DNA of 64,000 nucleotides, taken from the IMG/VR virus record IMGVR_UViG_3300022602_000070; one strand, 5' to 3'. The position numbers and the translations under genes were made by a program. The stretch comes from an uncultured virus (IMG/VR IMGVR_UViG_3300022602_000070). Taxonomy: Duplodnaviria; Heunggongvirae; Uroviricota; Caudoviricetes. Numbering within the stretch: the stretch's first letter is position 1; the number at the start of each line of letters is the position of its first letter. Positions 4,079 through 59,062 of the stretch are shown one piece after another. Under the pieces are notes generated by a model. The model saw nothing but the letters and a program-made list of their open reading frames with translations. It was not told where the DNA came from and made no database searches.

Positions 4079-7000
4079 ATGACTCAATTTAGAATAGACA
4101 GAATTAGATTTACCTGGAGAGGTACATGGAATGGCACAACAGTTGTTAATAGTGTTACGACTGTAGGCACCTCCTACGTTAAAGATGACATTGTACGTTA
4201 CGGCGGAAAATCATATGTCTGTTTGATAGGTAATGTTGCTGGTACTAGTTTTTATACAGACTTAGCAGCCGGCAACTGGACATTATGGTTTGATGGTTAT
4301 TCTTGGCAAGGCGCATGGCAAAATGGAACTGCATACAATCTGGGCGACATTGTTGCATATGACAGCGTAGTATATATTTGTAATACACCGCATACAAGTG
4401 TAGCAAGTAATTTACCATTAAACATTACTGGAGTTTCTGCCGGTACTCCTTCTGCCGGAAATGTAACATATTCGTTTAGCCCAATGGCTATACAACCTTT
4501 CTTAGCTAATTCTACTGTAACTACTACTGGGTTTACTCCATCTGGATACAATGGAACATTCACTGTATCATCTGCTACACTTAGTAGTGTTGTGGTACCA
4601 AATGCAACAGTAGGTTCTGTATCAGTATACGGAACAGTATCAGGGTTAATACAAGCTGGTTTAGAATATAATCAGTCTTACTGGAGTGTTTATGCTAGTA
4701 CTGATGATTGGAATGGATACTGGGCTACAAATACTAGATACAAAGTTGACGACATTGTAAAATATGGTGGTATAACTTATCGTTGTACATCTGCTCACGT
4801 AAGTTCTGCATTACTAGAAACAGATATTGCTAACTGGGCAACTGTTGTTCAAACAGATAAATGGACTACAGAATGGCAAATTAGTACGCATTATCGACTT
4901 GACGACATTGTGCGTTACGGCGGAACAGTTTATCGTTGTATATCTGCGCATACTAGTGCAAACAATATAACCTTAGGTTTAGAATTCAATCAATCAAATT
5001 GGCAAACAGTTATTTCTGGTGTTCAATACTTAGGCATATGGGTTAACAATACTAGATATAAAAACAATGACGTTGTTAAGTATGGCGCAAATGCATATAT
5101 TTGTACATACCCGCATACTGCTGGTTCAACATTTAATCCATCTTATTTTTCCTTGTATATTCCAGGCGAAGAATATAGAAATTCATGGAACGCTAGTCTT
5201 AACTATGCTATAGGTGATATCGTAAAATATGGCGGATACAGTTATCTTGCCACAGCTCCTAGCATAAACGTAGCACCATCAACACTTGGCGGTTGGCAAC
5301 TATTGACGCTAGGCTATACAATGTCCGAAGATTGGAATTCTACAGCACAATTCCAAACAGGTGATGTTGTTAGAAGAAACGGACAACTGTATGTTTCTAT
5401 TGCAGACAGTCTTGGACAAGACCCAAATGCTGCCGGATCAACTTATTGGACTTTAATTGTTTCAGGTAGTCAATGGCAAAATAAATGGGCTTCGGGAAAC
5501 AATTATGCCATTGGAGATGTAGCAACTTATTATGCTACAGCCTATCGTTGTTTAACTGCTCATACTGCTAGCGGTAGTAACAGCCCATTGGGTAATGGTG
5601 CAGGTTATTGGGCTGTTTATATTCAAGGTGATCACTTTGAAGTCTTACAAAATCAAGGTGACATCACTAGTTACACAAATACTCAAGTAGCAGTTCCGAT
5701 TGGAACTCCTGGTATGGTGTTAAAGTCTAATGGCACACAAGTATCTTGGCAACAATTTGGATTAATTAATAATGTCTACTATGTAAGTAATGTGAACGGA
5801 GTAGACGCTCCAGGCTACGGACTTACAATGAATGCACCATTCAAGACTGTTGCGTATGCTTGTCAATATGTTGGCGCTGGAATATATTATACCAACACAG
5901 CATATTTGCTTAATGCTAACAAACAATGGTTAGTATCAGAAATGTTTAACTGGATGAATTACAATAGTGTTCATTCATCTAATGGATTTACTCCTAGTTC
6001 AACTTATGATCCTTATAAAACACAACGTGATGCTGAATACATCATCGACGGAATTATCTATGATATAACACGCGGCGGCAACAGTCAATCAGTTGCTAAT
6101 GCATACATGTTCTTCCAACCAGGTACTAATTTCTTTTATGATTCAGGTGTTTCAGCAGAAATTTCTTACTTTATTTCCTCGTTGACATTTTTATCAAACT
6201 TAATGACTAGTAATGTTATTAATAATATTGCTCCAGGTTCTAGCTATCAAGCATTAACTGGTGCTAGTACTGCACACATAACAGTAACTGGCGCTAGCGG
6301 AACAGGATCGACTGCAACATTAACTTTCTCAACACTAGCTCAACCTCCATTCAGTATAGGCGAAACTATCACCGTAGCTAACGTAGCACCGATTGACTAT
6401 AACGGAACTTACGTAGTTACTAGTGTAAGCACAAGTAGTGTCAGTTATAGTAGTCTTGCAGTTGCCGCATATTCTAGTGCATCTACTGGAAGTATAACTG
6501 GTTCAGCAATTAATCAAACAATTAACACAAATTATGTTGCTGAGGCAAATGCTAGTTCAGTTGTTAGCAGTTTAATGAATATTATTATCAATGCATTAAC
6601 TAATGCTAGTACTGCTAGTATACCTCCAACTAATTCTGGTATAACAAGTACTATTAATATTAAAGATGGCACATATAACGAAGTGCTACCAATTACTGTT
6701 CCAGAGAATACTGCGATTGTTGGTGACGAATTAAGAAATACAATTATTCAACCATCAGTTGCAAATGCTACATTTACTGGATCAATATCTGGAACGACTC
6801 TTATTATTTCAACAACAGCACCATTTACTGGATCGATTAGTATTGGCATGTGGGTAACTGCTTCTGGAATTTACACACCTATACAAATTACAGGACAAGT
6901 TTCAGGAACAACAGGATTAGCTGGCACATATACAGTAAGTTTAAGCCAGACTATTGCAAGTACATCGATGACAGCAAGTTACAGTGCTGGATATATGTTC

Positions 7001-10000
7001 TATGTAAGAAATGGTTCTGGCATTAGAAATATGACATTAAGCGGCCTTAACGGCGGCCTAAGTCCAGCTAATGCTTATTTGACCAAACGACCTACTGCTG
7101 GTGCTTACGTGAGTTTAGATCCAGGTAAAGGTCCTTATGATAGTAGTGCTTGGATCTTTAGAAAATCACCTTACGTGCAAAACGTAACAACTTTTGGTAC
7201 TGGATGTAGTGGATTAAAATTAGATGGAAATTTACATAACGGTGGAAATAAATCTGTAGTTGCTAACGACTTTACACAAGTTCTAAGTGACGGGATTGGT
7301 GTGTGGGTAACAGGATCTGGCGCATTAACTGAATTAGTTTCAGTGTTTACATATTATTGCCATGCAGGTTATTTGGCAGAAGCCGGTGCAAAAATTCGTG
7401 CTACTAACGGTAATAGTTCATATGGTACATATGGTGTAGTATCAGAAGGATATGATACTACTGAAGTACCAATTTCATGTACTGTGTTTAATAGATATTA
7501 TCAAGCTCAAGTGGCATCTGCATTTGCCGGGCAAGCTCAAAATAAAATTTTATTATTAGAATTTGCTAATTGTGGAACCACTTATACTAGTGCATCTTAT
7601 ACGTTTGCTGGTGCAGGTACACAAGCAAATGCCGTACAAAGCGAATTTAGAGATAATGCAGTATTCGAAACACACTTAACTGGCGCAACGCTAGGCTTAG
7701 GTGGCAGCGGCTATATAACTGCTGGTAACCAAGCTCAAGGTGGCACAAGCACCACTATTACTATTGCTACTAACGATCAATTCTCTCTAACAAATTATCA
7801 AGGTATGAGAATTATCATTATTAGCGGTACAGGTGTTGGACAATATGGCTACGTACAAGCATATAACACAGTTAGTAAAGTTATAACTGTCTTTACAGAA
7901 AGTACTGGAGTTGCTGGGTGGGATCACGTAGTACCAGGAACACCTATTGTGTCTACATTAGATACAACTACACAATATTCTATCGAGCCTCGCCCAATTT
8001 GGACAAGCCCAGGTTTTGCATCCACTGTGAGAACATTGCCAACTTCTAATTCTTGGTCATCAGTGGCTTATGGAAATGGAACATTCATTGCTATAGATAA
8101 TATCAGTGGAGTTACGGCGACATCAACAGATGGACAAACATGGGCACCAGGAACATCATTGCCCACATTTGCTACATGGACTAGTGTGATATATGGCGGA
8201 ACAGTATGGGTAGCAATTTCTGCTGGTCCTGGAAACGGAACTTTAACCTCAACTACTACTGCCGCATATTCTTCTAATAACGGTGTTACTTGGAATAATG
8301 CAACATTGCCATCCAGTCAGACATGGTCAGCTGTTGCTTATGGAAACGGAACTTTTGTAGCGATTGCAAACAACGGAACTGCTACTGCAACTTCATCAAC
8401 CGGAACATCATGGTCAGCTGGCGGAGCATTGCCAACAGGAACATGGGTATCTATTGCTTACAATCCTATTAGTAGTTCGTTTGTTGCAATTTCTTCTAGC
8501 GGAAATTATGCGGCTTATAGTACTAATAACGGAGCATCGTGGACTCTTTCAACAACACAACCGTCAGCCGCTACATGGGCATCTATCACTTGGGGTAACG
8601 GAAAACTAGTAGCAATATCAACTAGCGGAACAGCTACAACATATTCGTTTGATGGTATAACATGGTATGCAGGAAATAATTTACCACAATCTGCAACATG
8701 GACACAAATTGCATACGGTCAAGGATTATTTGTAGCAGTTGCATCTAATACTACCGCATGCGCAGTATCTCAAGATGGGTTAAATTGGACTCCACAAGTA
8801 TTAGCAATTTCGGCATTATGGAATTCTGTAGCATTTGGTAACCCGACAATATCAGGAACTATAACTCCAATATGGACAGCGGTATCCGGTGGCGCCATAA
8901 CTCCAAGTCAAATTGGTTGTTCTATCTTAACTGGTGCGACAACCAAAGGCCGACTTGTTGTAAGTTCCAGCGCAATCTTCCAAGTAAAAATTTGGGAGCC
9001 AGGAAGCGGATATGCATCAGCTCCTACTATGACTATTATTGATCCTAATATTGCACTTAACAGTGGAACTAATGCAACTACAATATGTAGATTAGGCACA
9101 GGTGTTCTAGCACAACCTTACTGGATCAACAGAGGTATTGGATATCAGACTAGTACAACTACAGTAAGTATTACTGGAAACGGTTACGCTGATATTTTAC
9201 AAGGTCCTACTAATTTAATTGTAACAGGAATTACCGGCTCGGCACCAACGCCAGGAGCTAACATGGTAATTTCTGGAATTAATACTCAGTACAACATTAC
9301 TACTATTACTCAATTAAATTCTACAACATATTTGTTTACATTGAGTATAAATTTAGACAATAGTGTGCAACCTGCTAATGGAACACCAGTGACTATTCGT
9401 ATCAAATATAGTCAAGCACGTTTAACAGGTCATGATTTCTTATATATTGGTACTGGTAATTTCTCTACTACAAATTATCCAAACGTTAATATTAGTACAG
9501 CATTACAGAATCAACAAATACAATTTAACAATGGTGGTCGTGTATTCTTAACCAGTACTGACCAAGACGGTAACTTTAAGGTTGGTAACCTATTTGGAGT
9601 ACAACAAGCTACAGGTATTGTTACAGTAAATGCTAGTTTGTTTAATTTAAATGGTGTTACATCATTGAGCTTAGGTGGCGTTTCTATAGGACAAAATGCT
9701 GTGATTATTAGTCAATTTTCAACAGATAGTTATTTTGTTGCTAATAGTGACGCAATTATTCCTACACAAAAAGCTATTAAATCTTATGTGGCTCGTGCAA
9801 TTTCAACTGGTGGCTCTGCCGCCCAAACAGGAACTGCTGTTTCGGGTATTGTTGGAATAGGGCAACAAAATAATGTCACAGCCGATATTTTTACCACAAC
9901 CGGTACAGCAATGTATATAGGACGAAACGGCACCGCTAGTCCAAATAAAGTGTTGTTTGCTGGTAACGGGCAAGGGGTTCCTACTGGAATTGATGGAGGA

Positions 10001-10051
10001 ATGCTAGCTATGGCATTCTTTAGTAACAGTTTTGGTGGAAGCCAGTTATAA
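4079..10051 (+). CDS. Giant virion fibre/adhesin: N-terminal Trp-rich CBM5/12-like repeats, beta-helix-like core, beta-propeller-like repeats
   Basis: TAAATA at 4056-4061; repeats W..xTxY..DDIVxYGG..YxC...H; SPYVQNVTTFG...VANDFTQ core; W..VAYGNG.FVAI repeats; C-terminal FSTD..F.ANSD..IPTQKAIKSY. Confidence 0.7.
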   Translation: MTQFRIDRIRFTWRGTWNGTTVVNSVTTVGTSYVKDDIVRYGGKSYVCLIGNVAGTSFYTDLAAGNWTLWFDGYSWQGAWQNGTAYNLGDIVAYDSVVYICNTPHTSVASNLPLNITGVSAGTPSAGNVTYSFSPMAIQPFLANSTVTTTGFTPSGYNGTFTVSSATLSSVVVPNATVGSVSVYGTVSGLIQAGLEYNQSYWSVYASTDDWNGYWATNTRYKVDDIVKYGGITYRCTSAHVSSALLETDIANWATVVQTDKWTTEWQISTHYRLDDIVRYGGTVYRCISAHTSANNITLGLEFNQSNWQTVISGVQYLGIWVNNTRYKNNDVVKYGANAYICTYPHTAGSTFNPSYFSLYIPGEEYRNSWNASLNYAIGDIVKYGGYSYLATAPSINVAPSTLGGWQLLTLGYTMSEDWNSTAQFQTGDVVRRNGQLYVSIADSLGQDPNAAGSTYWTLIVSGSQWQNKWASGNNYAIGDVATYYATAYRCLTAHTASGSNSPLGNGAGYWAVYIQGDHFEVLQNQGDITSYTNTQVAVPIGTPGMVLKSNGTQVSWQQFGLINNVYYVSNVNGVDAPGYGLTMNAPFKTVAYACQYVGAGIYYTNTAYLLNANKQWLVSEMFNWMNYNSVHSSNGFTPSSTYDPYKTQRDAEYIIDGIIYDITRGGNSQSVANAYMFFQPGTNFFYDSGVSAEISYFISSLTFLSNLMTSNVINNIAPGSSYQALTGASTAHITVTGASGTGSTATLTFSTLAQPPFSIGETITVANVAPIDYNGTYVVTSVSTSSVSYSSLAVAAYSSASTGSITGSAINQTINTNYVAEANASSVVSSLMNIIINALTNASTASIPPTNSGITSTINIKDGTYNEVLPITVPENTAIVGDELRNTIIQPSVANATFTGSISGTTLIISTTAPFTGSISIGMWVTASGIYTPIQITGQVSGTTGLAGTYTVSLSQTIASTSMTASYSAGYMFYVRNGSGIRNMTLSGLNGGLSPANAYLTKRPTAGAYVSLDPGKGPYDSSAWIFRKSPYVQNVTTFGTGCSGLKLDGNLHNGGNKSVVANDFTQVLSDGIGVWVTGSGALTELVSVFTYYCHAGYLAEAGAKIRATNGNSSYGTYGVVSEGYDTTEVPISCTVFNRYYQAQVASAFAGQAQNKILLLEFANCGTTYTSASYTFAGAGTQANAVQSEFRDNAVFETHLTGATLGLGGSGYITAGNQAQGGTSTTITIATNDQFSLTNYQGMRIIIISGTGVGQYGYVQAYNTVSKVITVFTESTGVAGWDHVVPGTPIVSTLDTTTQYSIEPRPIWTSPGFASTVRTLPTSNSWSSVAYGNGTFIAIDNISGVTATSTDGQTWAPGTSLPTFATWTSVIYGGTVWVAISAGPGNGTLTSTTTAAYSSNNGVTWNNATLPSSQTWSAVAYGNGTFVAIANNGTATATSSTGTSWSAGGALPTGTWVSIAYNPISSSFVAISSSGNYAAYSTNNGASWTLSTTQPSAATWASITWGNGKLVAISTSGTATTYSFDGITWYAGNNLPQSATWTQIAYGQGLFVAVASNTTACAVSQDGLNWTPQVLAISALWNSVAFGNPTISGTITPIWTAVSGGAITPSQIGCSILTGATTKGRLVVSSSAIFQVKIWEPGSGYASAPTMTIIDPNIALNSGTNATTICRLGTGVLAQPYWINRGIGYQTSTTTVSITGNGYADILQGPTNLIVTGITGSAPTPGANMVISGINTQYNITTITQLNSTTYLFTLSINLDNSVQPANGTPVTIRIKYSQARLTGHDFLYIGTGNFSTTNYPNVNISTALQNQQIQFNNGGRVFLTSTDQDGNFKVGNLFGVQQATGIVTVNASLFNLNGVTSLSLGGVSIGQNAVIISQFSTDSYFVANSDAIIPTQKAIKSYVARAISTGGSAAQTGTAVSGIVGIGQQNNVTADIFTTTGTAMYIGRNGTASPNKVLFAGNGQGVPTGIDGGMLAMAFFSNSFGGSQL

Positions 10052-13100: not shown

Positions 13101-16100
13101 CAGGATTGTATTCAGGAACAGCTAAACTTACAACATTGGCTATAACAGGTGCAAGCGGATTAAATGGACAAGTTACATTTACATTTGCAACACAAACTAA
13201 TTCTCCATTTGTTGTAGGAGAAGTTATTACAATTTCTAGCGTTAGCCCAGGTGCATACAACGGAACATATACCGTGTTGTCCATGACAACAAACAGTGTA
13301 ACTGTTTCAAGCACAGTAACATCAACTTATGTTAGCGGTGGTAACATTGCTGGTTCGTTAATTAGTCAAACAATTGACAGTAACTACTCAGCAGAAACCG
13401 GCGCAGGTAGTGCAATTACTACATTAATGAGTATTATTACTACAGCATTAACTAATCAAAGTACTGCTTCAATCCCAGCGGCAAATACTGGAACCACAAG
13501 TACTATCTTTATTAAAACTGGTACTTATAACGAAGTATTACCAATTATAGTTCCAGAAAACTGCGCATTAGTTGGCGATGAATTACGTGGAGTTATTGTA
13601 CAACCATTCGGAACTACAGCAACATTTAGTGCTACAATATCAAATACTACATTAACTGCGTCAGCAATGACAGCAATATTATCTAGCCAAGGTATTACAG
13701 CAACAGCGTCTGGCACTTATGGTTCTACAGGTACAGGCGGTGTTGTTACTGTAGCTAGCACATCAACTTTATCAACAGGTCATATAATTGTTGTTACTGG
13801 TTCAGGCGGTGGTGGCATTGCAGCCGGAACTTATTATGTAGGCTCAGTATTAACTGCTACAACAATGACATTGGCTACCAGTTGGGCTAACGCATTAGCA
13901 GGTACATACATTACATTATCATCTGGTTCAATTTCAGGTACAACATTTACAGCATACGGAAGTATTATTGTAGGTATGTTTGTTAACGGAACAGGAATTA
14001 GTGCTCCATTGCAAGTTACTGCACAGCTAACAGGCGCTACAGGTACTGCGGTTACAAGCTCAACAGCTTCTGGATCTAGCGGTAGCTTTACAATTACATT
14101 AACTTCGTCAAACGGCGCTATTGCTGTAGGACAATTTGTTTCAGGAAACGGCGCAACTATTGGTGCAATTCCTACAAATACATTTGTTACAGCAGTTAAT
14201 GGTACAACTGTAACATTAAGCAATGAATTAGTTTCTACATTAACTAGCACTACTGTTTATTTCTTTACACCAGGACAAACAGGAACTTACACATTAAATT
14301 CAACAGTTGTATCTCAATTGACATTATCTATCAGTAGTGAAACAATGACTGCTGGTTATGTATCTGGTAACATGTTCTATGTAAGAAACGGATCTGGTGT
14401 TAGAAATATGACCTTATATGGTTTAACTGGTAGTAAAGGTACTCCAGTTACTATTTCTTCAGGAAGTATAACTGCAACAACAGCAGGTACATTTGGTACA
14501 ACAAATACAGGCGGTTCAATTACTGTAGCTAGCACAGCTGGTATGGCTCCAGGTAATACATTTGTGGTTAGCGGTTCAGGTGGTAACGGATTATCTGCAA
14601 CCACTTACTATATTGGTTCAGTATTAAACGGTACTACATTAACACTATCTACTACTTACAACTTATCATTAGCAGGTACATACATTACATTAACATCTGG
14701 TTCAATTTCAGGTACTACGTATGCATCTAACTATGGAACAGCTCGCCCAACTGGCGGTGCGTATGTAAGTTTAGATCCAGGTACAGGCCCAAGCGATACA
14801 AGTGCTTGGATCTTTAGAAAATCACCTTACGTACAAAACGTAACAACATTTGGTACTGGTTGTGTCGGCTGTAAAGTAGACGGAACATTACACAACGGCG
14901 GAAACAGAAGTATTGTTGCTAACGACTTTACACAAGTGTTAAGCGATGGTATTGGTTTCTGGTTGTACGGCCCGGGCGCATTAGCAGAATTAGTTTCAGT
15001 GTTTACCTACTATAACCAAATTGGTTATTTGTCAGAAGCTGGCGGCAAAATGCGAGCAACTAACGGTAACTGCTCATACGGTAGTTACGGTGTAGTAGCC
15101 GAAGGTTATGACTTAACCGAAGTTCCAGTAACCGCAGTGGTTAATAACAGATATACTGGTCCTATCATTTCTAACGTTGTTACTGATTCTCTTAACACAG
15201 TTTATCGCGTTGAATTCACCAACGCAGGTTCTGCTGCCAACACAGCTACATTCTCGTTTGCTAGTTCAGGCGGTTATGGATTGACCAGTGTAGGAAATGA
15301 ATTTAGAGATAATGCAGTATTTGAAACTCGTTGGTTAACCGGCGGTGCAAACTATATGACCGCAGCCAACACAGGACAAAGTGGTACAACAAATAGTTTC
15401 ACTATTGCCGCGGTAGACACTAATATTAGTAGTGTGTATCAAGGAATGAGATTATTAGTAACTGGCGGTACTGGAGTTGGCCAAACAGGATTTATTGCTT
15501 ACTATAATAACGGTAGTAAAATTGCACAAATGGCTAAAGAAAGTTTTACGCCATTAGCAATTACTGGTTCAGTTAATGCAACAGCTAGTGCTACTTCTAT
15601 TATTTCAGGAACATCCTTAATTCCAACTGGTACAGTTACTGGAGCATTTGTTCCTGGTATGTATTTGTCTAGCGGTGGCACAGTTACCGCCGGCACATAT
15701 ATTACTCAACTTAACACTGGTTCAATTACAACAGGATCATTTGGTAATACAACTATTAGCTCAACAGGCACAGTAGGTAGTATTACTGGTACTGGCCCTT
15801 GGACTGCTACAATTACCGGTATGTCTACAACTGCTGGATTGTTTGTTGGTTCTCCAATTACAGCCACATCGGGTTCTGGAACACTATACGGTGGAAGCCC
15901 AACTAGTGTTGTAGTAGCAAGTATTGTAAGCACTACTAGTATCACTTATACAGTCACTGGTGGTACTACACCTACTGCGGGTACTATTACTAACGTTAAC
16001 ACCCCAGTGTTATTAGCAAGTGCAGGATCAAGCAATATTGCATCAAACGCAATATTGAGTGGTGGCGGAACTACCGCTGGTACATACGTTAAAGGTATGA

Positions 16101-19000
16101 TTAGTTCTAATGCTACAGCCGTAGTTACTGCTACATTTACTGGAACAAGTGGTACTAACACTATTACTTTAAGTTCATTTACAGTAGGTAGTATTACATC
16201 AGTATCACTTGGACAATTTGTGTCTGGTACAAGTTCTACTACTAACATAGCAATACCAGCTGGTACATTTGTTACAGCAATTAACGTGTTTACTAACGTA
16301 ATTACAATTAGTAACAATTTAATTGGTGCATTATCAGCAAGTTGCAGTATATATCCTGCAGGAACAGCTGGTACTTATGCTATTAGCAATAGTGCAACTG
16401 GAACTCCAACAGCATCGACACAATATGTAATCAATATTAGTCAAAACCAAGTAAGTGCAACTGTTACTGGTACACAAAATACATTAACAGCTAGCAGTAC
16501 TGCTACATTATACAATGGCATGCCATTGTATCTAAGTGCTCAAGTTGGTATCACTACAAGTACTACTACATTGTATTATGCAGTAGGTGTAACAACTGGT
16601 CCTGGTGCAACTAACTTTAGTTTAGGTACAACTTCTACTGCTACTACTCCAGTAACAGTAAGTGGTACCAGTGGATTAAGCGGTACTTATGTATGGGCCG
16701 CTGGTTGGGATCATGTTGTTCCTGGCACTCCAATCAAAGCAAACTTAGATGTAACATCAACTTACATTATCGAACCTAGATTAACATACACTAGCCCAGG
16801 ATTTACTCCTACTGCCGGTACTGTAACTTCTGCTACATGGATTGATTGTATTTACGGAGATTTGAATGCTACGTATTCTACTATCTCAGCAACTGGCGGA
16901 ACTGGTACAAGCGCAACATTTACTGTGGTTAAAACTGGTATTGCGTATGCAGTGACACAAGTAAGCGGCGGATCAAACTATACTATTGGCGATACATTAA
17001 CTATTGCTGGTACAAGTTTAGGAGGTCTTGCTCCTGCAAACAATGTTACAATTACAGTTACCAACGTTGGAACTCTTAACACTATTACTAACTTCACATT
17101 TACTGGTGCAGGTGCTGGTGGTATATATGTAGCAGTTACTAATAACAGCCAAACAGCAGGTTACAGTACAAACGGCACAACATGGACTGTTGGTTCAACA
17201 ATGCCTGCAAGTAGTAACTGGACTTCAGTTACAGCTGGTGCAGTCAGTGGTACAACTACTTGGGTAGCAGTACAAAATGGATCAAATAACTGTGCAGTAA
17301 GTACCAACGGTACATCATGGACAGCAGGCGGAAGTTTAGGCGTTGCTGTTAACTGGTCATCAGTAGCATATGGTAACGGTTACTTTGTAGCAATACAAAG
17401 CGGCGGAACTAATATGGTTTACAGTGCTAACCCAGCTGTATCATGGAGCGCAGGATCTGGATTACCAAGTTCTACAACATGGAGTTCAGTAGCATACGGA
17501 AATGGTGTGTGGGTAGCAATTGCCTATGGTGGAACAACGTCTGCTTACAGTACAAACGTTAACGCAAGTACATGGGTAGCAAGTGGTGGTTTGCCAAGCA
17601 ACCAGTATTGGACTAGTGTAACATTTGGTAAAGGTAAATTTGTTGCAGTGGCCGCTCAGTCAAATGTTTCAGCATATTCGTTTAACGGTATTACTTGGTA
17701 CGCAAGTACATTCAACTTACCTTCTGTTCAAACATGGAACAAAGTACGTTATGGACAAGGTTTATTCTTTGCAACCAACACTGATGCAACTACATTAGTA
17801 GCAACTTCGGAAGACGGTTTATTCTGGACAGCTCAAACAATGACAGCAGGTTCAGCAGGCGGTTGGCCAGCAGTAGCATTTGGTAATCCAAACAGCGTAC
17901 CTTTATGGATCGCATTGACAAATAGCACTACTGTAGCTGAGAGCATTGTAACAGGTTGTACTGCACAAGGCAGAGCGGCAGTTACATTGGCCACAGGTGT
18001 TACTGGTTTTAGAATGGTAGAACCAGGAAGCGGTTATGCAAGTACACCAACAATGACAATTACTGATCCAAACCAAACTACTGCGGCTACATGGACAGTA
18101 CGTGTTGGTACTGGTGCAGTAGCTAACCCAACTTATACTAACAGAGGTACAAGTTATGCAACGGCTAGTGCAACTGTATCAACAAATGGTTATGCAGATA
18201 TATACCAACCAGGTAGTTACATTAACGTAAGCGGACTAACAGTTAATCCAACAGCAGGATCTAACGTGTTGTTTGCTGGTAATAGTAACGTTTACAAATT
18301 GGTACAAGTTACTAACTATTTAGGAACAGGTAGTGGTATTGCACCATATACCGCACAATTCCAAATTAATCCTGCGTTGACTACTTCAAATGCACCAACA
18401 AATGGCACAGCAATTACATTAAGATTGAAATACAGTCAAGTACGTTTGACTGGACACGATTTCTTAAGTATTGGTACTGGTAACTTTGTTAATACAAATT
18501 ACCCAGGAACACCATTTATTGCGGCTAATAGTAACTATCAAACAGTTAGCAATAACGGTGGTCGTGTGTTCTTTACAAGTACTGACCAAGATGGTAACTT
18601 TAACGTTGGTAATTTATTCTCAGTTCAGCAAGCTACTGGTGTTACAACCCTAAACGCTAGTGCGTTTAACGTTGCTGGTTTGAACAGTTTAACAATTGGT
18701 GCAGTTAGTTTAGGTACAAATAGCGCAACTATTACACAATTTAGTACAGATCCGTACTTTACAGCAAATAGTGACAATATTTTACCTACGCAGAAAGCGA
18801 TTAAATCGTATATTACAAGCCAAATTGGTGGCGGCGGTAGTACATTGAATGTAAATACATTAACAGCTGGTATAATTTACATTGCTGGCAATACTATCAC
18901 AACAACAACTGGTGGACAAATCAAGGTATCTAACAAGATGTACTTTGTGGGTGGTATTGACGGACAACCACTAGCTATGAACTTTTTACTATTAAATTAA
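10109..19000 (+). CDS. Giant virion fibre/adhesin, paralogue of 4079..10051 expanded by inserted modules
   Basis: TAAATA at 10083-10088 and GAGGA RBS; same domain order and motifs as 4079..10051 plus about 1000 aa of Thr/Gly-rich inserts. Confidence 0.7.
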   Translation: MAEFKLGRLRFVWQGNWTTGTAYVKDDVVRISGKSYVCVVGHTASTNFITDLNAVPTKWNLVADGSTWTGTWNNSTYYNTNDLVKYGGVVYICNTPHQSVPASITLTTTGASASNGTATLSFNSSFTINGTVYANAVQPFLVGATIVVSGFSSAANFNGTFTVTACTTTSVSYALIGSYTDTVGTITGTAQSGLEASLSNWTTYATSMNWIGNWSINTRYKDNDVIKYGGETYVCNTGHVSANTVLLGLEANQSNWTLFADGFNWETAWSNGVHYKLNDVVTYGGYVYVCNTPHISAASSLTLTSTNFVLNANVATATFAQQVIPPYAVGSTITLAGFSPLTTSGSVNNVNASFTVTACTTTTVSFALTGTYTVVVEGTITGTSQLGLENDQSKWDYFHKGFNYIAGGWQPDTRYKINDIVNYAGTAGSTGGDTWICTTAHTSTGSFVQTNWARFVEGLTYYNTWSNTTVYTPGDLVTYGGFSYIATSVVPAGTVPPTDVSSPTTLNITNATSTASVVTLTFATQSSIPFQAGQTITVSGMSPSAYNGQYVVTGIPSTTQVQYLINDGPIGAYSILGTVASNNWALYTTGFTLIGDWSNATAYQVGDVVRLGGYTYLCIVNNSATQPPNTTYWSKLNSGVRWNAPGLSYTGLTTTNVTVTNGAAAGATFSVSTSGTTYSLTKTANGTNYTNGDIIKILGTSVGGISPFNDITITVLTTSTGAISTFSSTGYAVTWASGTQYVAGDAVAYGPNSYICILAHTGATGNRPDNDITGTYWNTLVAGASTSILTTTGDIAYYGPGGATRLPIGASGQVLKVSNSGYPSWGYFGIVTDVYYVSSTNGVDSPAPGYGTTLDRPWKTIAYAAKQVYNGTYFPNTSNLLTRNKAWLIAEMYNWMNYEKQNSVTPFTTGSTYDPYKTQRDAGYVVDAVIYDLTRGGNSQTVAAALAYFQQGSTNTFYDTAVASEVAFFIASLNFLSGLMTSNAITNTAPATIYQNSTGLYSGTAKLTTLAITGASGLNGQVTFTFATQTNSPFVVGEVITISSVSPGAYNGTYTVLSMTTNSVTVSSTVTSTYVSGGNIAGSLISQTIDSNYSAETGAGSAITTLMSIITTALTNQSTASIPAANTGTTSTIFIKTGTYNEVLPIIVPENCALVGDELRGVIVQPFGTTATFSATISNTTLTASAMTAILSSQGITATASGTYGSTGTGGVVTVASTSTLSTGHIIVVTGSGGGGIAAGTYYVGSVLTATTMTLATSWANALAGTYITLSSGSISGTTFTAYGSIIVGMFVNGTGISAPLQVTAQLTGATGTAVTSSTASGSSGSFTITLTSSNGAIAVGQFVSGNGATIGAIPTNTFVTAVNGTTVTLSNELVSTLTSTTVYFFTPGQTGTYTLNSTVVSQLTLSISSETMTAGYVSGNMFYVRNGSGVRNMTLYGLTGSKGTPVTISSGSITATTAGTFGTTNTGGSITVASTAGMAPGNTFVVSGSGGNGLSATTYYIGSVLNGTTLTLSTTYNLSLAGTYITLTSGSISGTTYASNYGTARPTGGAYVSLDPGTGPSDTSAWIFRKSPYVQNVTTFGTGCVGCKVDGTLHNGGNRSIVANDFTQVLSDGIGFWLYGPGALAELVSVFTYYNQIGYLSEAGGKMRATNGNCSYGSYGVVAEGYDLTEVPVTAVVNNRYTGPIISNVVTDSLNTVYRVEFTNAGSAANTATFSFASSGGYGLTSVGNEFRDNAVFETRWLTGGANYMTAANTGQSGTTNSFTIAAVDTNISSVYQGMRLLVTGGTGVGQTGFIAYYNNGSKIAQMAKESFTPLAITGSVNATASATSIISGTSLIPTGTVTGAFVPGMYLSSGGTVTAGTYITQLNTGSITTGSFGNTTISSTGTVGSITGTGPWTATITGMSTTAGLFVGSPITATSGSGTLYGGSPTSVVVASIVSTTSITYTVTGGTTPTAGTITNVNTPVLLASAGSSNIASNAILSGGGTTAGTYVKGMISSNATAVVTATFTGTSGTNTITLSSFTVGSITSVSLGQFVSGTSSTTNIAIPAGTFVTAINVFTNVITISNNLIGALSASCSIYPAGTAGTYAISNSATGTPTASTQYVINISQNQVSATVTGTQNTLTASSTATLYNGMPLYLSAQVGITTSTTTLYYAVGVTTGPGATNFSLGTTSTATTPVTVSGTSGLSGTYVWAAGWDHVVPGTPIKANLDVTSTYIIEPRLTYTSPGFTPTAGTVTSATWIDCIYGDLNATYSTISATGGTGTSATFTVVKTGIAYAVTQVSGGSNYTIGDTLTIAGTSLGGLAPANNVTITVTNVGTLNTITNFTFTGAGAGGIYVAVTNNSQTAGYSTNGTTWTVGSTMPASSNWTSVTAGAVSGTTTWVAVQNGSNNCAVSTNGTSWTAGGSLGVAVNWSSVAYGNGYFVAIQSGGTNMVYSANPAVSWSAGSGLPSSTTWSSVAYGNGVWVAIAYGGTTSAYSTNVNASTWVASGGLPSNQYWTSVTFGKGKFVAVAAQSNVSAYSFNGITWYASTFNLPSVQTWNKVRYGQGLFFATNTDATTLVATSEDGLFWTAQTMTAGSAGGWPAVAFGNPNSVPLWIALTNSTTVAESIVTGCTAQGRAAVTLATGVTGFRMVEPGSGYASTPTMTITDPNQTTAATWTVRVGTGAVANPTYTNRGTSYATASATVSTNGYADIYQPGSYINVSGLTVNPTAGSNVLFAGNSNVYKLVQVTNYLGTGSGIAPYTAQFQINPALTTSNAPTNGTAITLRLKYSQVRLTGHDFLSIGTGNFVNTNYPGTPFIAANSNYQTVSNNGGRVFFTSTDQDGNFNVGNLFSVQQATGVTTLNASAFNVAGLNSLTIGAVSLGTNSATITQFSTDPYFTANSDNILPTQKAIKSYITSQIGGGGSTLNVNTLTAGIIYIAGNTITTTTGGQIKVSNKMYFVGGIDGQPLAMNFLLLN
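13893..14715 (+). repeat. 49-bp direct repeat, 1 mismatch (13893-13941 and 14667-14715)
   Basis: CATTAGCAGGTACATACATTACATTA(T/A)CATCTGGTTCAATTTCAGGTAC at the ends of two homologous inserted modules. Confidence 0.9.
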
Positions 19001-20058: not shown

Positions 20059-20862
20059 ATGACAACTTCACTATCGAGTTTAGTAGCACCTTCATTAGGT
20101 ACTGTCAGCTACTATAAACAAAATTCAGTAATAGCTGTTTATAATAGTAGTGTGGGTAACGGATTAAACGGCGGACAATGCTGTTTATGGACTGCGCCCG
20201 GACCAGGCTGGGTAATTTTTGAAATGTGGGGCGCCGGTGGTGATGGTGCAGGCGCAAGCTGTTGTGCTGGCCCAGGATGTGGTATGGGCGCAGGCAATTA
20301 TTCAAGAAAATATTTAACAGTATCAGCAGGATTGCAATTTACAGTATGTGCTGCCAGTTCAGGATGTTGCTGGTGTTGTAACTGCGGAAGCGGTGGTGCT
20401 CAACAATGTGCGGCATTTAATTATCCTAGTTATGTCTTATGTGCTAACAGTACATTAGTTGCTTGTGCCGCAGGCGGTAATCCAGGTACAGTTGTTTGCG
20501 GTAAAGGTAATCAACAATGTACAGGTGTTTGTGCTCCAGGCGGAATGTATGGTACAACATGTTGTGCTACTGGAGATTATACAGCTGGATCTTTTAACAG
20601 CAGTTTTAAAGATAGTAACTATTGTAACCAGTACATGTTTACATGGACTACTATGCCATTGAAAGGTACAGGAACATCATTATATGGATTTGACTATTGC
20701 AGTCCAGGTATCCAACACTGCGGACAATCATCATTTCCTAACCAAAATATTACAGCGTGGCCAGGCGGAGCTGGTGCTATGGGTAATGCGTGTGCAGGAT
20801 CTACACAGTTCTATGGACAAAACGGCGCTGGCGGCCTAGTATTAATCACTTATGGAACTTAA
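20059..20862 (+). CDS. Cys/Gly-rich adhesin-like protein 1
   Basis: AGGAG RBS; WTAP...FEMWGAGG.G, WPGGAG and GAGGLVLITY glycine-rich motifs; 23 Cys by my count. Confidence 0.6.
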   Translation: MTTSLSSLVAPSLGTVSYYKQNSVIAVYNSSVGNGLNGGQCCLWTAPGPGWVIFEMWGAGGDGAGASCCAGPGCGMGAGNYSRKYLTVSAGLQFTVCAASSGCCWCCNCGSGGAQQCAAFNYPSYVLCANSTLVACAAGGNPGTVVCGKGNQQCTGVCAPGGMYGTTCCATGDYTAGSFNSSFKDSNYCNQYMFTWTTMPLKGTGTSLYGFDYCSPGIQHCGQSSFPNQNITAWPGGAGAMGNACAGSTQFYGQNGAGGLVLITYGT

Positions 20863-20871
20863 AGGATAGAT

Positions 20872-21621
20872 ATGCCAGAAACTATTAAAATTACAAAAGA
20901 TTTCACATACGATATACCAGACAGTTATTTGGCTCAGACAAATACGCAAGGTAAAACAGCAACTTGGACTTATCAAGGTCCAAGCCGTATGTGGATACAT
21001 GCAGATACTGCAACAGGAAAAATTATGCCTACTCCTGTGTACTTAGACGAACATGAAGGCGAACTAATTGGCGATCCAGGTCCACACTTAAAGAAGATTC
21101 TTGTAGATGCGAATGTAGACACATTATTAGCGGCACTGATTCATGATGAAACTGATATTCATCATCCAGATTTTCCTAAGACACAAGAAACTTTGCCAGA
21201 CGGTCATGTACATATAATGCACGACCCACAAAGTCCAAGTCATACATATGAAACAAGTGAAATCACATATGATTTCACAAATAACAAGTGGAATACTCCT
21301 TTTCCTTGGAGAAAGCCGCATCAAACAATGGCAGATGTAATGCATGCTAGAAATTCTAGATTGAAACATTCAGATAATATCATGCATCAGTTAATTGCTC
21401 AAGGCAAAGACACTTCCGAATGGGTCGAGTACAGACAAAAATTACGCGATTATCCAGCACTTATGCAAGGAGTTGATCCTTGGAAATGGAAATTTCCAGA
21501 TGCTCCAGACGACCATGTAGTCAATAAAGTAGCTGAGGAGCATGTAGATCCTGCGTTTATCGCTCCTGCGGCACCAATTCCACCAGTGCCGGTTCAACCA
21601 AATAATGGAGCACCTCAATAA
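20872..21621 (+). CDS. Tail fibre assembly chaperone-like protein
   Basis: C-terminal RNSRLKHSD...EWVEYRQKLRDYP...WKFPDAP motif typical of phage tail assembly chaperones. Confidence 0.6.
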   Translation: MPETIKITKDFTYDIPDSYLAQTNTQGKTATWTYQGPSRMWIHADTATGKIMPTPVYLDEHEGELIGDPGPHLKKILVDANVDTLLAALIHDETDIHHPDFPKTQETLPDGHVHIMHDPQSPSHTYETSEITYDFTNNKWNTPFPWRKPHQTMADVMHARNSRLKHSDNIMHQLIAQGKDTSEWVEYRQKLRDYPALMQGVDPWKWKFPDAPDDHVVNKVAEEHVDPAFIAPAAPIPPVPVQPNNGAPQ

Positions 21622-22394
21622 TGACAACATCATTATCATCAATATTACCAGATTCAAGATGGAGTATTAATGCTCCAGCAACATTTACACAGTTATATGT
21701 TTATAATACAAACATAAACACAGCATACAATGGCGGTCAATGTTGTTTATGGACAGTGCCAGCCAACGTAAACCAAGCTAAATTTGAATTATGGGGCGGA
21801 GGTGGCGCAGGCGGTGGCGCATGCTGTTGCCAAATGCAAATGTGTAGTGGCGGTTCAGGCGACTATGTACGTAAAACTGTAAGGGTTATTCCTGGATGCC
21901 AAATTACAATTTGTGCTGGCGGAAGCACTTGCTGTACTACATGTTGTTGTGGACCTGGCGGTTTTAATAGCTTTGTCTGTTTAAGCGGTGGTACATATCC
22001 GATTAGCGTAACAGCTGGCGGCGGAGTTAGCGGCCAAACAAACTGTAGCAACTGGAATCAGTGCGAAGGTTACTATGCTGGATGCGGAAGTGCAGGCGGC
22101 AACAGTGGCGGCGACTTTGTTATGTGTGGCGGCTGGAATACATTCCATACATCACAACCAACCTGCGGTTACGATGGCTGGGGTTGGGTACCAGGTACAA
22201 CATACTGGACAACTGGTACTGCTATGACTAGAGATTATTGTCAAAATTATACCGGAGGCAATGCGTTAGGAAACGGCCAAGGACAAATTTCCTTCCCAGG
22301 AAGCGGTGGCGCTGGTGGAGCTAACTCTTACGGAAACGGTACTTGCTGGGGCGCATTTGGTCTTGGCGGCATGGTTTTGGTAACATTTAGATAA
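21621..22394 (+). CDS. Cys/Gly-rich adhesin-like protein 2
   Basis: NGGQCCLWTVP, FELWGGGGAGGGACCC, FPGSGGAGG, GLGGMVLVTF; 21 Cys by my count. Confidence 0.6.
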   Translation: MTTSLSSILPDSRWSINAPATFTQLYVYNTNINTAYNGGQCCLWTVPANVNQAKFELWGGGGAGGGACCCQMQMCSGGSGDYVRKTVRVIPGCQITICAGGSTCCTTCCCGPGGFNSFVCLSGGTYPISVTAGGGVSGQTNCSNWNQCEGYYAGCGSAGGNSGGDFVMCGGWNTFHTSQPTCGYDGWGWVPGTTYWTTGTAMTRDYCQNYTGGNALGNGQGQISFPGSGGAGGANSYGNGTCWGAFGLGGMVLVTFR

Positions 22395-22403
22395 GGATAA
22401 AAG

Positions 22404-23180
22404 ATGACAACAAGTTTAAAATCGATAGCATTCCAATATAGCGGAACTAATGCGCCATCAAATCCAACAGAATTTACAGTTTATAATTCAAGTTTTACTA
22501 CAGTAGCCAACGGTGGCACTTGTTGTAACTGGACTGCACCTGCAGGAACTACCTGGGTTACATTTGAAATCTGGGGCGGCGGAGCAAGCGGCAGTGGTTC
22601 TTGCTGTTGCGGTGGCGGCGGCTCTGGCGGAGCTGGCGGTTATGGTGTAAAAACTGTAACAGCATCAGCAACTGGCGGCCTAGCTGGCTGTTCTTATACA
22701 ATTTGTGCGGCAAGTAGCAGTAATATTTGCTGTAATACTAATGCTGGTTCTGGATATGCAAGTTATGTTAACGGATACGGATTAAGTAATTTCTGTGCAA
22801 ACGGTGGATATCCAACTTGCGGTACATGTTTCTTGTGGAACAGTTGTTATTTCTGTCGCTTCATTAACTACTGTTGTGCTAGCTCTAGTGCTACAGGTTG
22901 TGGATCTGTTTGCGGCGCTGATTTTTCATTATGCGCACCAAGCGGTGGATACATTGGACAAACAACTGGTGGTGGTTCACAAGGTGTTCAAGGATTAGGC
23001 GCTGCCGCTCCGATGACACGTTCTGGCCCATTTGCAGACGGATATTTTAACATGAGTTGCGGTAACGGATTTACCATTGAGTTTCCAGGCGGAGGTGGTG
23101 CAACATTGGGTTGTACTTATAACTGTCAGTGTTGTGGAATTGCCGGTGCCGGCGGACTAGTATCAGTAACATACGGATAA
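22404..23180 (+). CDS. Cys/Gly-rich adhesin-like protein 3
   Basis: NGGTCCNWTAP, FEIWGGGASGSGSCCC, FPGGGG, GAGGLVSVTY; 24 Cys by my count. Confidence 0.6.
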   Translation: MTTSLKSIAFQYSGTNAPSNPTEFTVYNSSFTTVANGGTCCNWTAPAGTTWVTFEIWGGGASGSGSCCCGGGGSGGAGGYGVKTVTASATGGLAGCSYTICAASSSNICCNTNAGSGYASYVNGYGLSNFCANGGYPTCGTCFLWNSCYFCRFINYCCASSSATGCGSVCGADFSLCAPSGGYIGQTTGGGSQGVQGLGAAAPMTRSGPFADGYFNMSCGNGFTIEFPGGGGATLGCTYNCQCCGIAGAGGLVSVTYG

Positions 23181-24362: not shown

Positions 24363-24390
24363 AAAAAAGGAGCTTTATGCTCCTTTTTTT
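24363..24390. terminator. Bidirectional intrinsic terminator
   Basis: AAAAAA-GGAGC-TTTAT-GCTCC-TTTTTTT between convergent genes. Confidence 0.85.
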
Positions 24391-26188
24391 AATTTGCTAC
24401 TTTGATTAGCTTACCATATTCTGGCAAATACAAGTATTCTATTTCACTATTAAACAATGTATGTACTGCATCATCTAATGTTTCTACTAGTGGATCACCA
24501 CCTAAATTAAAACTAGTATTGAATAAAATTGGAACTCCTGTACGATTATAGAACGCTTTAATTAAATCATAATAGTTTTTATTTTGCTCTTCTGTAACTG
24601 TTTGTATACGGCAAGTTCCATCCACGTGGATAATGCTTGGAATCTTTTCTTCAACACCTGGTTGGCAATTTACAGCATACATCATGTAAGGGCTATCTTC
24701 CATACCACGTAAATCAAACCAATCATGCACATAATCTTGCAAGATACTACCAGCAAATGGTCGGAAATATTCACGATGTTTAACTTCATTTACAAAATCT
24801 TTACCATCTTCGTAAGTTGGGTTAAACAAAATACTTCTGTTACCTAATGCTCTAGGACCGTTTTCACTGCGTCCTTGATAAAATGTAACAATTTGTTTGT
24901 TAAGTAACAGATCTACGATATCCTCGTTGGTAGCGTTTGTAATTTCGGCATCGTATTTCTTTACAACTTTGTCAAAATCGTCTTGTGTATACAAATATTC
25001 AAATCCTAAATACAATCCGTCTTTGCTATAATCGATATCACTGCGTGGATCAATACCTTTATAGAACATCAATGCCGCACCGATTGCAGTTCCTGCGTCA
25101 TTACTAATAGGTTCTACATAAATTTCAATGCCATCGTCTTTTAACTGATCTAAATAGTAGTAATTAGCCACACAGTTGAGTCCGTATCCTCCACTAATAA
25201 CTACTTTCTTATGGCCAGTTTTTTCACTAGCCATGCGAATTAATCTAACAACTTGTTCCTGTGTTTGTGTTTGGCAAGCATAAGCCAAATCTCTACGGTT
25301 ATCTAGTTGTGTAATATCTTCACCATTAGCTGACATTAGTTCGCTAAACAACATAGCATTAACTTTTGCACCATTTGGATAAGTGGGTACAATTAAATTC
25401 CTGTTGGCTAACGGGAATATAGTGGAATCGTCAAATAATTTTGGAATGTTATTGTTAGGTTTGCCGTATGGAAATAGTCCCATAGTCTTACCAGCTTCAA
25501 TACTAGACCAACCACAATATTCTGTAACAGCTTCATATACCTTAGTAATACCTGCACGGTCTGTAATTAGTGCTTCGTGCGACATATTTGGCTCGTCGTA
25601 ACTAGTGCTGTCAAAATTTGAAATAAATGCACCGGGATTAGGACCACGCAATCCAATATGCTTGTATACTGTGGTAAAATTATTAGGATATGAACAATCG
25701 TAAATACTTTCTGTTTCCCAGCCTGTAACACTTTCTCCATTTACATTTAATGGAAGGAATGTTCCTGCACCATCCACAATTAATGCGGCCGCTTCTGAAA
25801 AGCCTGAACGATAAAATGCACAAGCCGCATGTAATTTATGATGTATATGACTAAGGTCGACTACTTGCGGGTGATGTTGTGCATTTTCTTTTCTGGAAAT
25901 TAAACCTAATTTACGGGCAAGACCTGTATAAACGTCGTCTCCACTAAAGTCAACTCTACCAGCAGTATCTTGTAGTTTTTGTGTATGTGCAATTACAAGA
26001 TAGTCTAGTGTATCTGTATAATCTAAAATCTTAAGCATAGCGGCATATGGTCCGCCATCATACTTGTGTCTGCTTAACCGTTCTTCTTCGATACTAAACA
26101 CAATTTCTCCATTTTTAAGGAGACAAACACTACTATTATGTCCTCTAGCAACGCCGGCGATCCAAATATCTCTTTTTAAATTTTTCAT
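24389..26188 (-). CDS. Carbamoyltransferase (CmcH/NodU/TobZ family)
   Basis: GHNSS...EEERLSRHK, HHKLHA, DGAG, GKTMGL.PYG, GG.GLNCVAN, DAGTAIGAA, GPRALGNRSIL, KHREYFRPFA, NTSFN. Confidence 0.92.
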   Translation of the reverse strand: MKNLKRDIWIAGVARGHNSSVCLLKNGEIVFSIEEERLSRHKYDGGPYAAMLKILDYTDTLDYLVIAHTQKLQDTAGRVDFSGDDVYTGLARKLGLISRKENAQHHPQVVDLSHIHHKLHAACAFYRSGFSEAAALIVDGAGTFLPLNVNGESVTGWETESIYDCSYPNNFTTVYKHIGLRGPNPGAFISNFDSTSYDEPNMSHEALITDRAGITKVYEAVTEYCGWSSIEAGKTMGLFPYGKPNNNIPKLFDDSTIFPLANRNLIVPTYPNGAKVNAMLFSELMSANGEDITQLDNRRDLAYACQTQTQEQVVRLIRMASEKTGHKKVVISGGYGLNCVANYYYLDQLKDDGIEIYVEPISNDAGTAIGAALMFYKGIDPRSDIDYSKDGLYLGFEYLYTQDDFDKVVKKYDAEITNATNEDIVDLLLNKQIVTFYQGRSENGPRALGNRSILFNPTYEDGKDFVNEVKHREYFRPFAGSILQDYVHDWFDLRGMEDSPYMMYAVNCQPGVEEKIPSIIHVDGTCRIQTVTEEQNKNYYDLIKAFYNRTGVPILFNTSFNLGGDPLVETLDDAVHTLFNSEIEYLYLPEYGKLIKVAN

Positions 26189-41750: not shown

Positions 41751-42006
41751 CACAAATTGTTTTTAAGTTATTATGACGGCAATTATTCAAATCGCCGTCT
41801 ACGTGAAACACCGCAAATACTTCTTTGTGCGGTGATTTAAAGCCACACTTGTCGCAATAGCTTTTCATAGTATATCCAGCCATAACCCACCGAGGAAGTT
41901 TAACACCTCGTAAGCATGCGCCGCATTGACTTCTATAATAAGGTTTTTTATTTTTATAATAGTTGATTGCAACTGGGTGCAATCCACAACTGCATAGTGG
42001 TCTCAT
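41680..42006 (-). CDS. Zn-ribbon HNH endonuclease-like protein
   Basis: CSC, CGAC, CDKC, VFHVDGDLNN...NLKTICANC; TAAATA 5 nt upstream (42012-42017). Confidence 0.7.
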   Translation of the reverse strand: MRPLCSCGLHPVAINYYKNKKPYYRSQCGACLRGVKLPRWVMAGYTMKSYCDKCGFKSPHKEVFAVFHVDGDLNNCRHNNLKTICANCQRVLHKEGVRWKQGDLVPDL

Positions 42007-42110
42007 GCAGTTATTTAAGCCTTTTTGAAGCCTTTTCCGGTGCGTTAACAGCTATAAAAAGTCCAAAAGCCATAAATACATTAAGAACATGTACTCATGG
42101 AGATAATACA

Positions 42111-58827: not shown

Positions 58828-59062
58828 GACACAAATCGGTGACATCTGGTTGCTATTCGCAGATTATATTGACAAAAAAGTAATTGACAGTGTAGCTGAG
58901 CGTTATGTAGATTTACTAGCCGATTTCGGTACTAGTGATCGTGTAATGCAAAATGCAACAGGCGTCGACGGTGTCCTAGATTCTGCAATCGAATATTATC
59001 TCGATGAAGAGTCTGATGAAGAAGAAGAAACAAACTATAACGAAGAAGACGAGGATTATTAA
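58817..59062 (+). CDS. Hypothetical acidic protein
   Basis: 81 aa ORF overlapping both uvsX and uvsY ends. Confidence 0.65.
   Translation: MLNETQIGDIWLLFADYIDKKVIDSVAERYVDLLADFGTSDRVMQNATGVDGVLDSAIEYYLDEESDEEEETNYNEEDEDY

Follow-up and report, generated by a model that had tools for sequence, protein, structure and literature searches.

We analysed a 64,000-nucleotide stretch of DNA from an uncultured virus (Caudoviricetes; IMG/VR record IMGVR_UViG_3300022602_000070), referred to below as the window. One of its genes, P0002 (10109-19000, + strand), encodes a 2963-aa tail-fibre-type protein and carries a block of 385 residues where the corresponding loop of the adjoining paralogue P0001 has three. 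We consider it likely that this block forms a branched arm, composed of five small beta-barrel modules, and that it arose via successive in-frame domain insertions with no dedicated diversification machinery. The block was confirmed to parse as C[A[A[D,B]]], a branched tree of five modules on four levels, in which the letters denote module types. Its half-modules stand in nested order, and contiguous forms of each split module are present in other proteins. The architecture is rare and slowly evolved, and it is plastic by gain, loss and relocation of cassettes.

The nested block and its site

P0002 reads ...KIAQMAKES[385 aa]AGWDHVVPG, with KES ending at residue 1812 and AGWDH beginning at residue 2198. 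The insert, residues 1813-2197 (window 15545-16699), is in-frame. P0001 (window 4079-10051, 1990 aa), itself a giant gene of the tail-fibre type, reads VFTES-TGV-AGWDHVVPG at the equivalent place, with only TGV in that loop. Measured from GxGxGQ to GWDH, the distance is 30 residues in P0001 and 412 in P0002. The host segment (L0) lies at 15401-15544 on the N side (aa 1765-1812, ...GGTGVGQ...KIAQMAKES) and at 16700-16780 on the C side (aa 2198-2224, AGWDHVVPG...YIIEP), where it forms a conserved anchor. The empty loop of P0001 is found at 7826-7951 (aa 1250-1291, 30 residues between anchors). These segments, and all module segments given below, are on the + strand. Reading out the sequence reproduced the insert coordinates and flanking text of the original prediction, and every module string quoted there was found in the order described.

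Modules were identified with strict profile hidden Markov models (HMMs) built from contiguous examples in a family of 43 proteins, comprising P0001, P0002 and 41 metagenomic homologues (P0003 onward). The profiles had 69 positions for type A, 77 for type B, 91 for type C and 77 for type D (extended form). They replaced a loosely iterated type-A HMM, which had become contaminated and gave "full length" alignments to contiguous sequence. In hhalign comparisons, A and B were homologous (probability 95%, E 3.5e-8) and B and C were weakly linked (64%, E 6.7e-5); the remaining pairs of modules gave no demonstrable relationship. Pfam searches at E up to 10, with the 385-aa block as a whole and with four of its modules singly, gave no match, including to the immunoglobulin-like (Ig-like) families Big_2, I-set and fn3.

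The outermost module, level 1, is of type C. Its first strand (15545-15577, aa 1813-1823, FTPLAITGSVN) is separated by all the inner levels from its remainder (16469-16699, aa 2121-2197), which scored 19.0 bits with the C HMM (E 2.5e-6) and could be aligned with the C modules that stand un-nested in P0027 and P0033. Level 2 is a type-A module, whose N part (15578-15715, aa 1824-1869) was identified by the HMM rejoin scan and had its best partner in the C part (16406-16468, aa 2100-2120, TASTQYVINISQNQVSATVTG). Level 3 is a second type-A module, in three pieces. These are a first strand (15716-15745, aa 1870-1879; predicted local distance difference test score, pLDDT, 72-86 in the AlphaFold2 model described below), a middle part (16004-16111, aa 1966-2001; pLDDT 80-89) that aligned to contiguous forms in P0034 and P0016, and a C part (16355-16405, aa 2083-2099, PAGTAGTYAISNS...; pLDDT 85-87) that is contiguous with the middle part in P0016. 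Two complete modules at level 4 lie between the pieces: a type-D module (15746-16003, aa 1880-1965; 55.5 bits over HMM positions 2-77; pLDDT 72-88) and a type-B module (16112-16354, aa 2002-2082; 91.5 bits; pLDDT mostly 79-94, with one block at 62).

The first strands of levels 1 and 3 were assigned from homologues, because the HMMs give no signal for segments of 10-11 residues. The level 1 strand is contiguous with the rest of C, in the same loop, in P0027, P0033, P0037 and P0038. It is missing from P0001, which indicates that the strand arrived together with the C module.

This arrangement follows the A1-B1-C-B2-A2 scheme of interrupted domains, in that complete D and B modules lie between type-A pieces and homologues without D or B have that A contiguous. 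It is also multi-level: the halves of level 2 enclose level 3, which in turn encloses D and B, and P0034 adds a level inside B. The resulting order of pieces, N2-N3-[D]-N3'-[B]-C3-C2, cannot be given by a tandem array. The branched tree and the homology of A and B bear out the prediction that beta modules sit in-frame in loops, including those of related modules.

The same loop was compared across the family. Both anchors, GxGxGQ and GWDH, were located by pattern in 31 of the 43 proteins, and the distance between them was 30 aa in one protein, 108-118 aa in four, 318-320 aa in two, 412-424 aa in 11, 490-503 aa in seven and 601-605 aa in six. P0027 and P0033 are without residues 1822-2121, and the alignment to P0027 shows one 300-residue gap. 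The D module is missing from P0034, where the first two level-3 pieces are contiguous, and the B module is missing from P0016, where the last two are. P0034-36 carry a fifth nesting level, a 96-residue C-like insert inside B (aa about 2211-2306 of P0034), and extra modules are present inside the outer C of P0011 and P0018. P0039 aligned untidily with level 2, and that alignment was set aside.

In the mechanism that we propose, a type-C module would have entered a loop of the conserved host segment, just after the beta-helix part, and a type-A module would occupy the first hairpin of C. A second A would lie before the last strands of the first, hosting D in its first hairpin and B in a later loop, and each split module would fold as one barrel. 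The nest may have arisen from rare illegitimate or short-homology recombination, aided by the general UvsX and UvsY proteins, with only insertions into permissive hairpins surviving. The arm would form a stiff, doubly anchored surface decoration.

Rejoined modules and predicted folds

We next considered the possibility that a Thr/Ser/Gly-rich tandem array of beta-strand repeats had been mis-parsed as nested. The biased composition fits such an artefact, as does the "full length" alignment of the loosely iterated type-A HMM to contiguous sequence. With the strict A HMM, level 2 rejoined (1824-1869 plus about 2098-2120) scored 46.0 bits, against 22.4-24.0 bits for contiguous sequence, and residue 2098 was the top of 5305 trial rejoinings (median 21.9 bits, 99th percentile 39.4 bits). 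For level 3, the middle part joined to residue 2083 scored 25.6 bits, against 8-11 bits contiguous; this rejoining was the second-best cluster of 2793 trials, behind the level-2 C part.

A second nest in P0002 was parsed by automated excise-and-search. It consists of a type-A module in three pieces (13616-14353; aa 1170-1192, 1284-1311 and 1386-1415) with a C module (13685-13957, aa 1193-1283) and a B module (14042-14263, aa 1312-1385) inside. Rejoined, the A module scored 34.5 bits, against -14.8 bits contiguous, and none of 200 random downstream parts reached that score. Nesting had been predicted at 13619-14352, corresponding to P0002 residues 1171-1414, and both the parse and the rejoin score agree with it. 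The un-nested form that was said to survive in the paralogue proved to be a type-A module of P0001 (6764-6979, aa 896-967), scoring 62.7 bits over HMM positions 1-69.

These scores argue against the artefact, since the strict HMM favours the distant partner of the level-2 N part (46.0 against 24 bits). Tandem duplication, moreover, cannot give the observed order of pieces, the module-sized single gaps fall inside the modules of homologues and not between them, and the innermost modules are predicted to fold as discrete barrels with high pLDDT. We therefore regard a mis-parsed tandem array as very unlikely, and prefer nesting by insertion.

AlphaFold2 was run on P0002 residues 1762-2243 as a monomer, with a 15-row alignment, and gave a mean pLDDT of 62. 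Residues 1861-2111, including all three level 3 pieces, were modelled at pLDDT 72-94 (one 10-residue block at 62). In this model, the two innermost modules, D and B, show a barrel fold, and on this basis the modules are predicted to be small closed beta-barrels and not Ig-like sandwiches.

A Foldseek search of the PDB with the model yielded nothing at E <= 0.001. The model was also compared with 48,161 chains by VIA-align, considering the best 50 matches; Z values below 8 in this comparison may reflect only a common arrangement. D (model residues 118-206) matched six-stranded barrels at Z 5-6.6. B (model residues 240-323) matched 8eci_2 of phage Bridgette at Z 8.1 (root-mean-square deviation 3.0, 72 aligned) and 9n71_B, the Mystique tail tube, at Z 7.9. 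Matches of these two contiguous modules include the JBD30 baseplate, the lambda and Chi tail tips and the phi92 endosialidase, and also barrels of the riboflavin synthase, F1-ATPase N-terminal and EF-Tu domain-2 types. The Uba1 FCCH domain (4p22_B residues 215-295) matched at Z 6.6, and no Pfam match to the E1_FCCH-like family PF16190 was obtained; a feature match of 0.89 to a viral cluster, 73% of whose members carry PF16190, is a lead only. No sandwich-barrel hybrid motif (SBHM) or RNA polymerase chain was among the best 50 of the 48,161 chains, although such chains could still rank lower. In BFVD, 24 matches were found at E <= 0.001, mostly to fibre or structural proteins of uncultured Caudovirales and cyanophages. 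The beta-helix region of P0001 matched no PDB chain at E <= 1 in a sequence search.

A complex prediction for the three level 2-3 pieces (model residues 63-122, 202-240 and 322-359) scored 0.50 (runs 0.50, 0.52 and 0.02), and the best of three controls scored 0.00. It was graded "weak support" (runs agreeing in at least 15% of contacts, partner pLDDT at least 43). Of 157 solved complexes, 116 attained this mark, as did 2 of 215 mismatches; a score of 0.60 or under was given by only 18 of the 157 solved complexes and by both mismatches. This prediction was not counted as evidence.

The chain order could also be nested while levels 0-2 form extended or strand-exchanged sheets in a trimeric fibre and not split barrels. 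Fibre proteins are usually trimers whereas our model is a monomer, and it has low confidence at levels 0-1 and moderate confidence at level 2. However, contiguous C modules score 95-101 bits and the contiguous A module 62.7 bits as ordinary modules, and members of the same families are expected to fold alike. We thus consider such sheets unlikely and favour split barrels.

Several results weigh against an arm of nested, split barrels. Random excision of the same length gave 28-31 junction-spanning matches, against 24 with the real excisions, as would also be expected of the tandem-array artefact. This control is probably uninformative, because it forms chimeras of tandem homologous modules. 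In a per-junction control, 18 of 25 split modules were within the top 5%, six of the 25 beat all 200 random partners, and seven were indistinguishable from random. Among those seven, the final piece was 4-13 residues long in five, and the contiguous score was within 5 bits of the rejoined one in six. In addition, the first strand of level 3, with its 10 residues, could not be located by the HMM scan (best windows 24 bits, against 21.3 bits without the strand), and the level 1 score came almost wholly from the C part, with no signal from the 11-residue first strand (1813-1823). AlphaFold2 gave pLDDT 34-72 for the level-2 N part and below 50 for levels 0-1, and it modelled the second nest poorly (mean pLDDT 57; four of five models 32-40). 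The pairing of half-modules into one barrel in three dimensions is presumed and is not seen directly. The function of the arm is likewise a matter of inference only; most likely, it adjusts reach or weakly adheres to host-surface glycans.

Cassette relocation and stability

The 297-aa unit formed by residues 1824-2120 was found whole after GDELR in P0033, P0037 and P0038 (42-47% identity by BLAST), and whole downstream of GWDH in P0027 (56%), P0026, P0016 and P0013. In P0033 (aa 915-1211), the cassette lies inside a resident A module after GDELR. The downstream cassette of P0027 (aa 2985-3400) has the same C-module flanks as the P0002 arm, indicating that the relocated unit was the whole 385-residue arm; the protein's own L0 loop holds a plain C module.

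A maximum-likelihood tree was constructed from 42 cassette copies, including ten unclassed rows that the anchor patterns missed. The downstream copy of P0027 grouped with 12 L0-loop copies in a starred clade (100/98) of 13 rows. A minimum of two changes of the "downstream" label is required by the starred branches, and "site 1" forms one clade. The proposed check of module phylogeny against host position was positive, with the whole cassette at a minimum of three different host sites. We infer that whole nested cassettes relocate between sites and fibre genes on an evolutionary time scale.

In Mosig_00063 of Pelagibacter phage Mosig (7087-10824), a different inserted domain follows the GESLRG motif, at the place where P0001 has an A module. 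It would thus appear that, in the wider family, the cap loop after GESLRG is a hotspot for insertion.

The nest had been put forward as a candidate undescribed diversification system. An active, dedicated system that repeatedly adds modules to fibre loops over short time scales would fit the span of inserts at one loop, from 0 to about 575 residues across relatives, the switching of host sites by cassettes, and the co-occurrence of a one-module-sized form in a lake contig. However, the architecture is unchanged in eight homologues, P0003-P0010, at 56-63% identity and 99-100% coverage. Over the region, contigs from four lake or freshwater runs, dated 2012, 2016, 2017 and 2020, show 0-1 base differences in each long piece (for example, 2035 nt with 0 differences and 2198 nt with 1), bearing in mind that contigs hide rare variants and that rare events could escape notice.

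Repeats and genes in the window also argue against such a system. Direct repeats longer than 100 nt paired P0001 with P0002 (70-79% identical), and those among modules were 22-41 nt long and mostly 60-90% identical. No long or near-identical DNA repeats joining modules, and no conserved junction sequence, were found. Inverted repeats amounted to five weak pairs (17-25 nt, 72-89%), with no sign of an invertible segment. Among the 45 open reading frames (ORFs) of the 64-kb window, annotated with PHROGs, there was no reverse transcriptase and no site-specific or dedicated recombinase. A diversity-generating retroelement was considered and rejected, as neither a reverse transcriptase among the 45 ORFs nor a near-identical pair of template and variable repeats was found in the 64-kb window.

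The short form was seen in one lake-metagenome contig, in which a match to 15503-15531 is followed by one to 16697-16731, and 256 other letters replace 1165. At its joints (15528/15531 to 16697), the matching sides are only 21-29 letters at 90% likeness. The contig probably comes from a co-occurring relative or other phage with a single-module insert in the same loop, most likely another phage.

Given the constant architecture, the near-identical contigs and the absence of long repeats and of a reverse transcriptase, the claim of an undescribed diversification system was not upheld, and we regard an active system of this kind as very unlikely. The accompanying statement that no recombinase or reverse transcriptase is visible was right for reverse transcriptases and dedicated recombinases; it does not extend to a UvsX-like recombinase (57772-58827, + strand; phrog_97, E 1.4e-69) and a UvsY-like mediator (59062-59517, + strand; phrog_231, E 3.2e-15), which are general T4-type recombination proteins, not dedicated ones.

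Genomic setting and comparison with known systems

Both giant genes matched the tail-fibre profile phrog_9851 (E 6.6e-153 for P0001 and 1.9e-131 for P0002), and they are 39-44% identical across their common parts. Their N termini carry 7-8 CBM_5_12-type repeats (eight in P0002), and a Pfam scan at E up to 0.1 gave no other family. They are surrounded by a T4-type virion and replication module, as annotated with PHROGs over the 45 ORFs. The neighbours include baseplate-wedge-like, small fibre and fibre-assembly-like proteins, a 1498-aa sheath, tube and neck proteins, terminase, a gp32-like single-stranded DNA-binding protein, UvsX, UvsY and a helicase. The profile match and the tail-module neighbours place the two proteins with the phrog_9851, or Kyanoviridae tail-fibre-like, family. 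Searching with the beta-helix part by tblastn gave 105 phage records annotated as tail fibre; the closest isolates were T4-like cyanophages together with Pelagibacter phage Mosig EXVC030M, a member of Kyanoviridae matching at 44.8% identity. At the nucleotide level, window 15000-17500 had no blastn match in 50,697 phage records. At least 0.66 of the sampled words of the stretch were present in 20 lake or freshwater metagenome runs. CheckV rated a 51-kb record of the same contig as 14% complete, which suggests a genome near 360 kb and a T4-like jumbo phage.

Two further stretches of the window (20059-23180, + strand, and 24389-26188, - strand) hold three paralogous phrog_4205 genes, interspersed in alternation with phrog_9740 and fibre-assembly-like genes, and a Nol-like carbamoyltransferase gene that adjoins the fibre module on the opposite strand.

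Modules were also detected outside the two nests. A further C module of P0002 (14459-14728, aa 1451-1540; 95.4 bits) sits between MFYVRNGSG and AYVSLDPG of the beta-helix part, a place where P0001 has no insert. By eye (not computed), it is about 60% identical to the C module at 13685-13957, a likeness that suggests within-gene duplication to a new site. In the 1498-aa tail sheath (41967-46463, + strand), the sheath profile spans only residues 904-1490, and the N-terminal part holds a C-type module and two A-type ones (aa 609-695, 696-751 and 768-832), indicating that the sheath, too, is decorated by this module family. One B-type and five C-type matches (aa 303-491, 577-641, 819-904 and 1229-1298) were obtained in a virion structural protein of 1737 aa (phrog_5838; 31528-36741, + strand).

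A large module family, with no Pfam match or curated-library name, decorates the fibres and the sheath of T4-like phages from fresh and marine waters, as well as another of their virion proteins. Because domains are rarely inserted recursively, this fibre family offers a natural experiment on the tolerance of nested insertion: one and the same loop has zero, one, three, four or five levels, and a cassette of 385 residues moves between sites. The family can reveal the hairpins that are permissive and the way in which virion surface arms lengthen, and its arms could provide compact, doubly anchored scaffolds for protein engineering. As a long shot, T4-like aquatic phages may grow such arms recursively by recombination, copying modules or cassettes preferentially into the hairpin-coding sites of other modules, so that arm length and branching would be heritable, tunable and linked to host range. 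If this were true, a protein-level cut-and-paste grammar would operate across several virion proteins (the fibres, the sheath and the 1737-aa structural protein).

In full-text searches of the literature outside subscription journals, the papers listed included no description of nested modules in phage fibres. Among known proteins, the Kyanoviridae fibre-like proteins (Mosig_00063 and those of Synechococcus phages S-SSM7 and S-CAM1 and Prochlorococcus phage P-SSM2) have the same scaffold, with 35-45% identity in the beta-helix part and N- and C-terminal motifs in common with P0001 and P0002. Mosig_00063 differs in its length of 1245 aa and, read by eye, in having neither the host-loop anchor nor these nests. 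The barrels of tail proteins (9n71_B of Mystique, 8rk3 of JBD30, 8iyk of the lambda tail tip, 4hiz of phi92 and 8eci of Bridgette), which we take to be insertion or decoration domains, resemble D and B at the level of the fold (Z 5.5-8.1); they differ in being single matched domains. Ig-like domains, reportedly described by Fraser et al. in 2006, are said to be shuffled among phage structural proteins, usually as terminal or tandem additions, and are thought to provide weak surface adhesion. The modules described here differ in having no Ig-like Pfam match and in matching barrels instead.

Two known architectures are likewise nested. According to PMC3004832, the T4 sheath protein gp18 has domain I inserted in domain II, II in III, and III between termini that form IV. 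Like P0002, gp18 is a T4-type virion protein with four nested levels, and its domain I is a six-stranded barrel (PMC3004832). Its domains, however, are unrelated folds in fixed number, whereas here related small modules recur, with 0 to at least 5 levels between relatives, in a branched tree.

The second is Si3 of the cyanobacterial RNA polymerase beta' subunit (RpoC2), which comprises eight SBHMs, of which four are assembled from segments far apart in the chain (PMC10895346). A survey published in 2026, covering 48,551 insertion events, lists Si3 as a six-level nested architecture and as the extreme case in a set dominated by single-level insertions (PMC13114784). In these accounts, Si3 resembles the P0002 arm in that one small beta domain family has been recursively inserted in its own copies, giving both contiguous and split copies and an elongated arm (PMC10895346, PMC13114784). 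Si3, however, is built of the sandwich-barrel hybrid motif (HABAS) and is placed in the trigger loop of a cellular enzyme. Here, in contrast, at least two distinct module groups (A/B and D, with C weakly linked) are found, the modules match closed six-stranded barrels among the best 50 of the 48,161 VIA chains, the host is a virion fibre, and the cassettes move.

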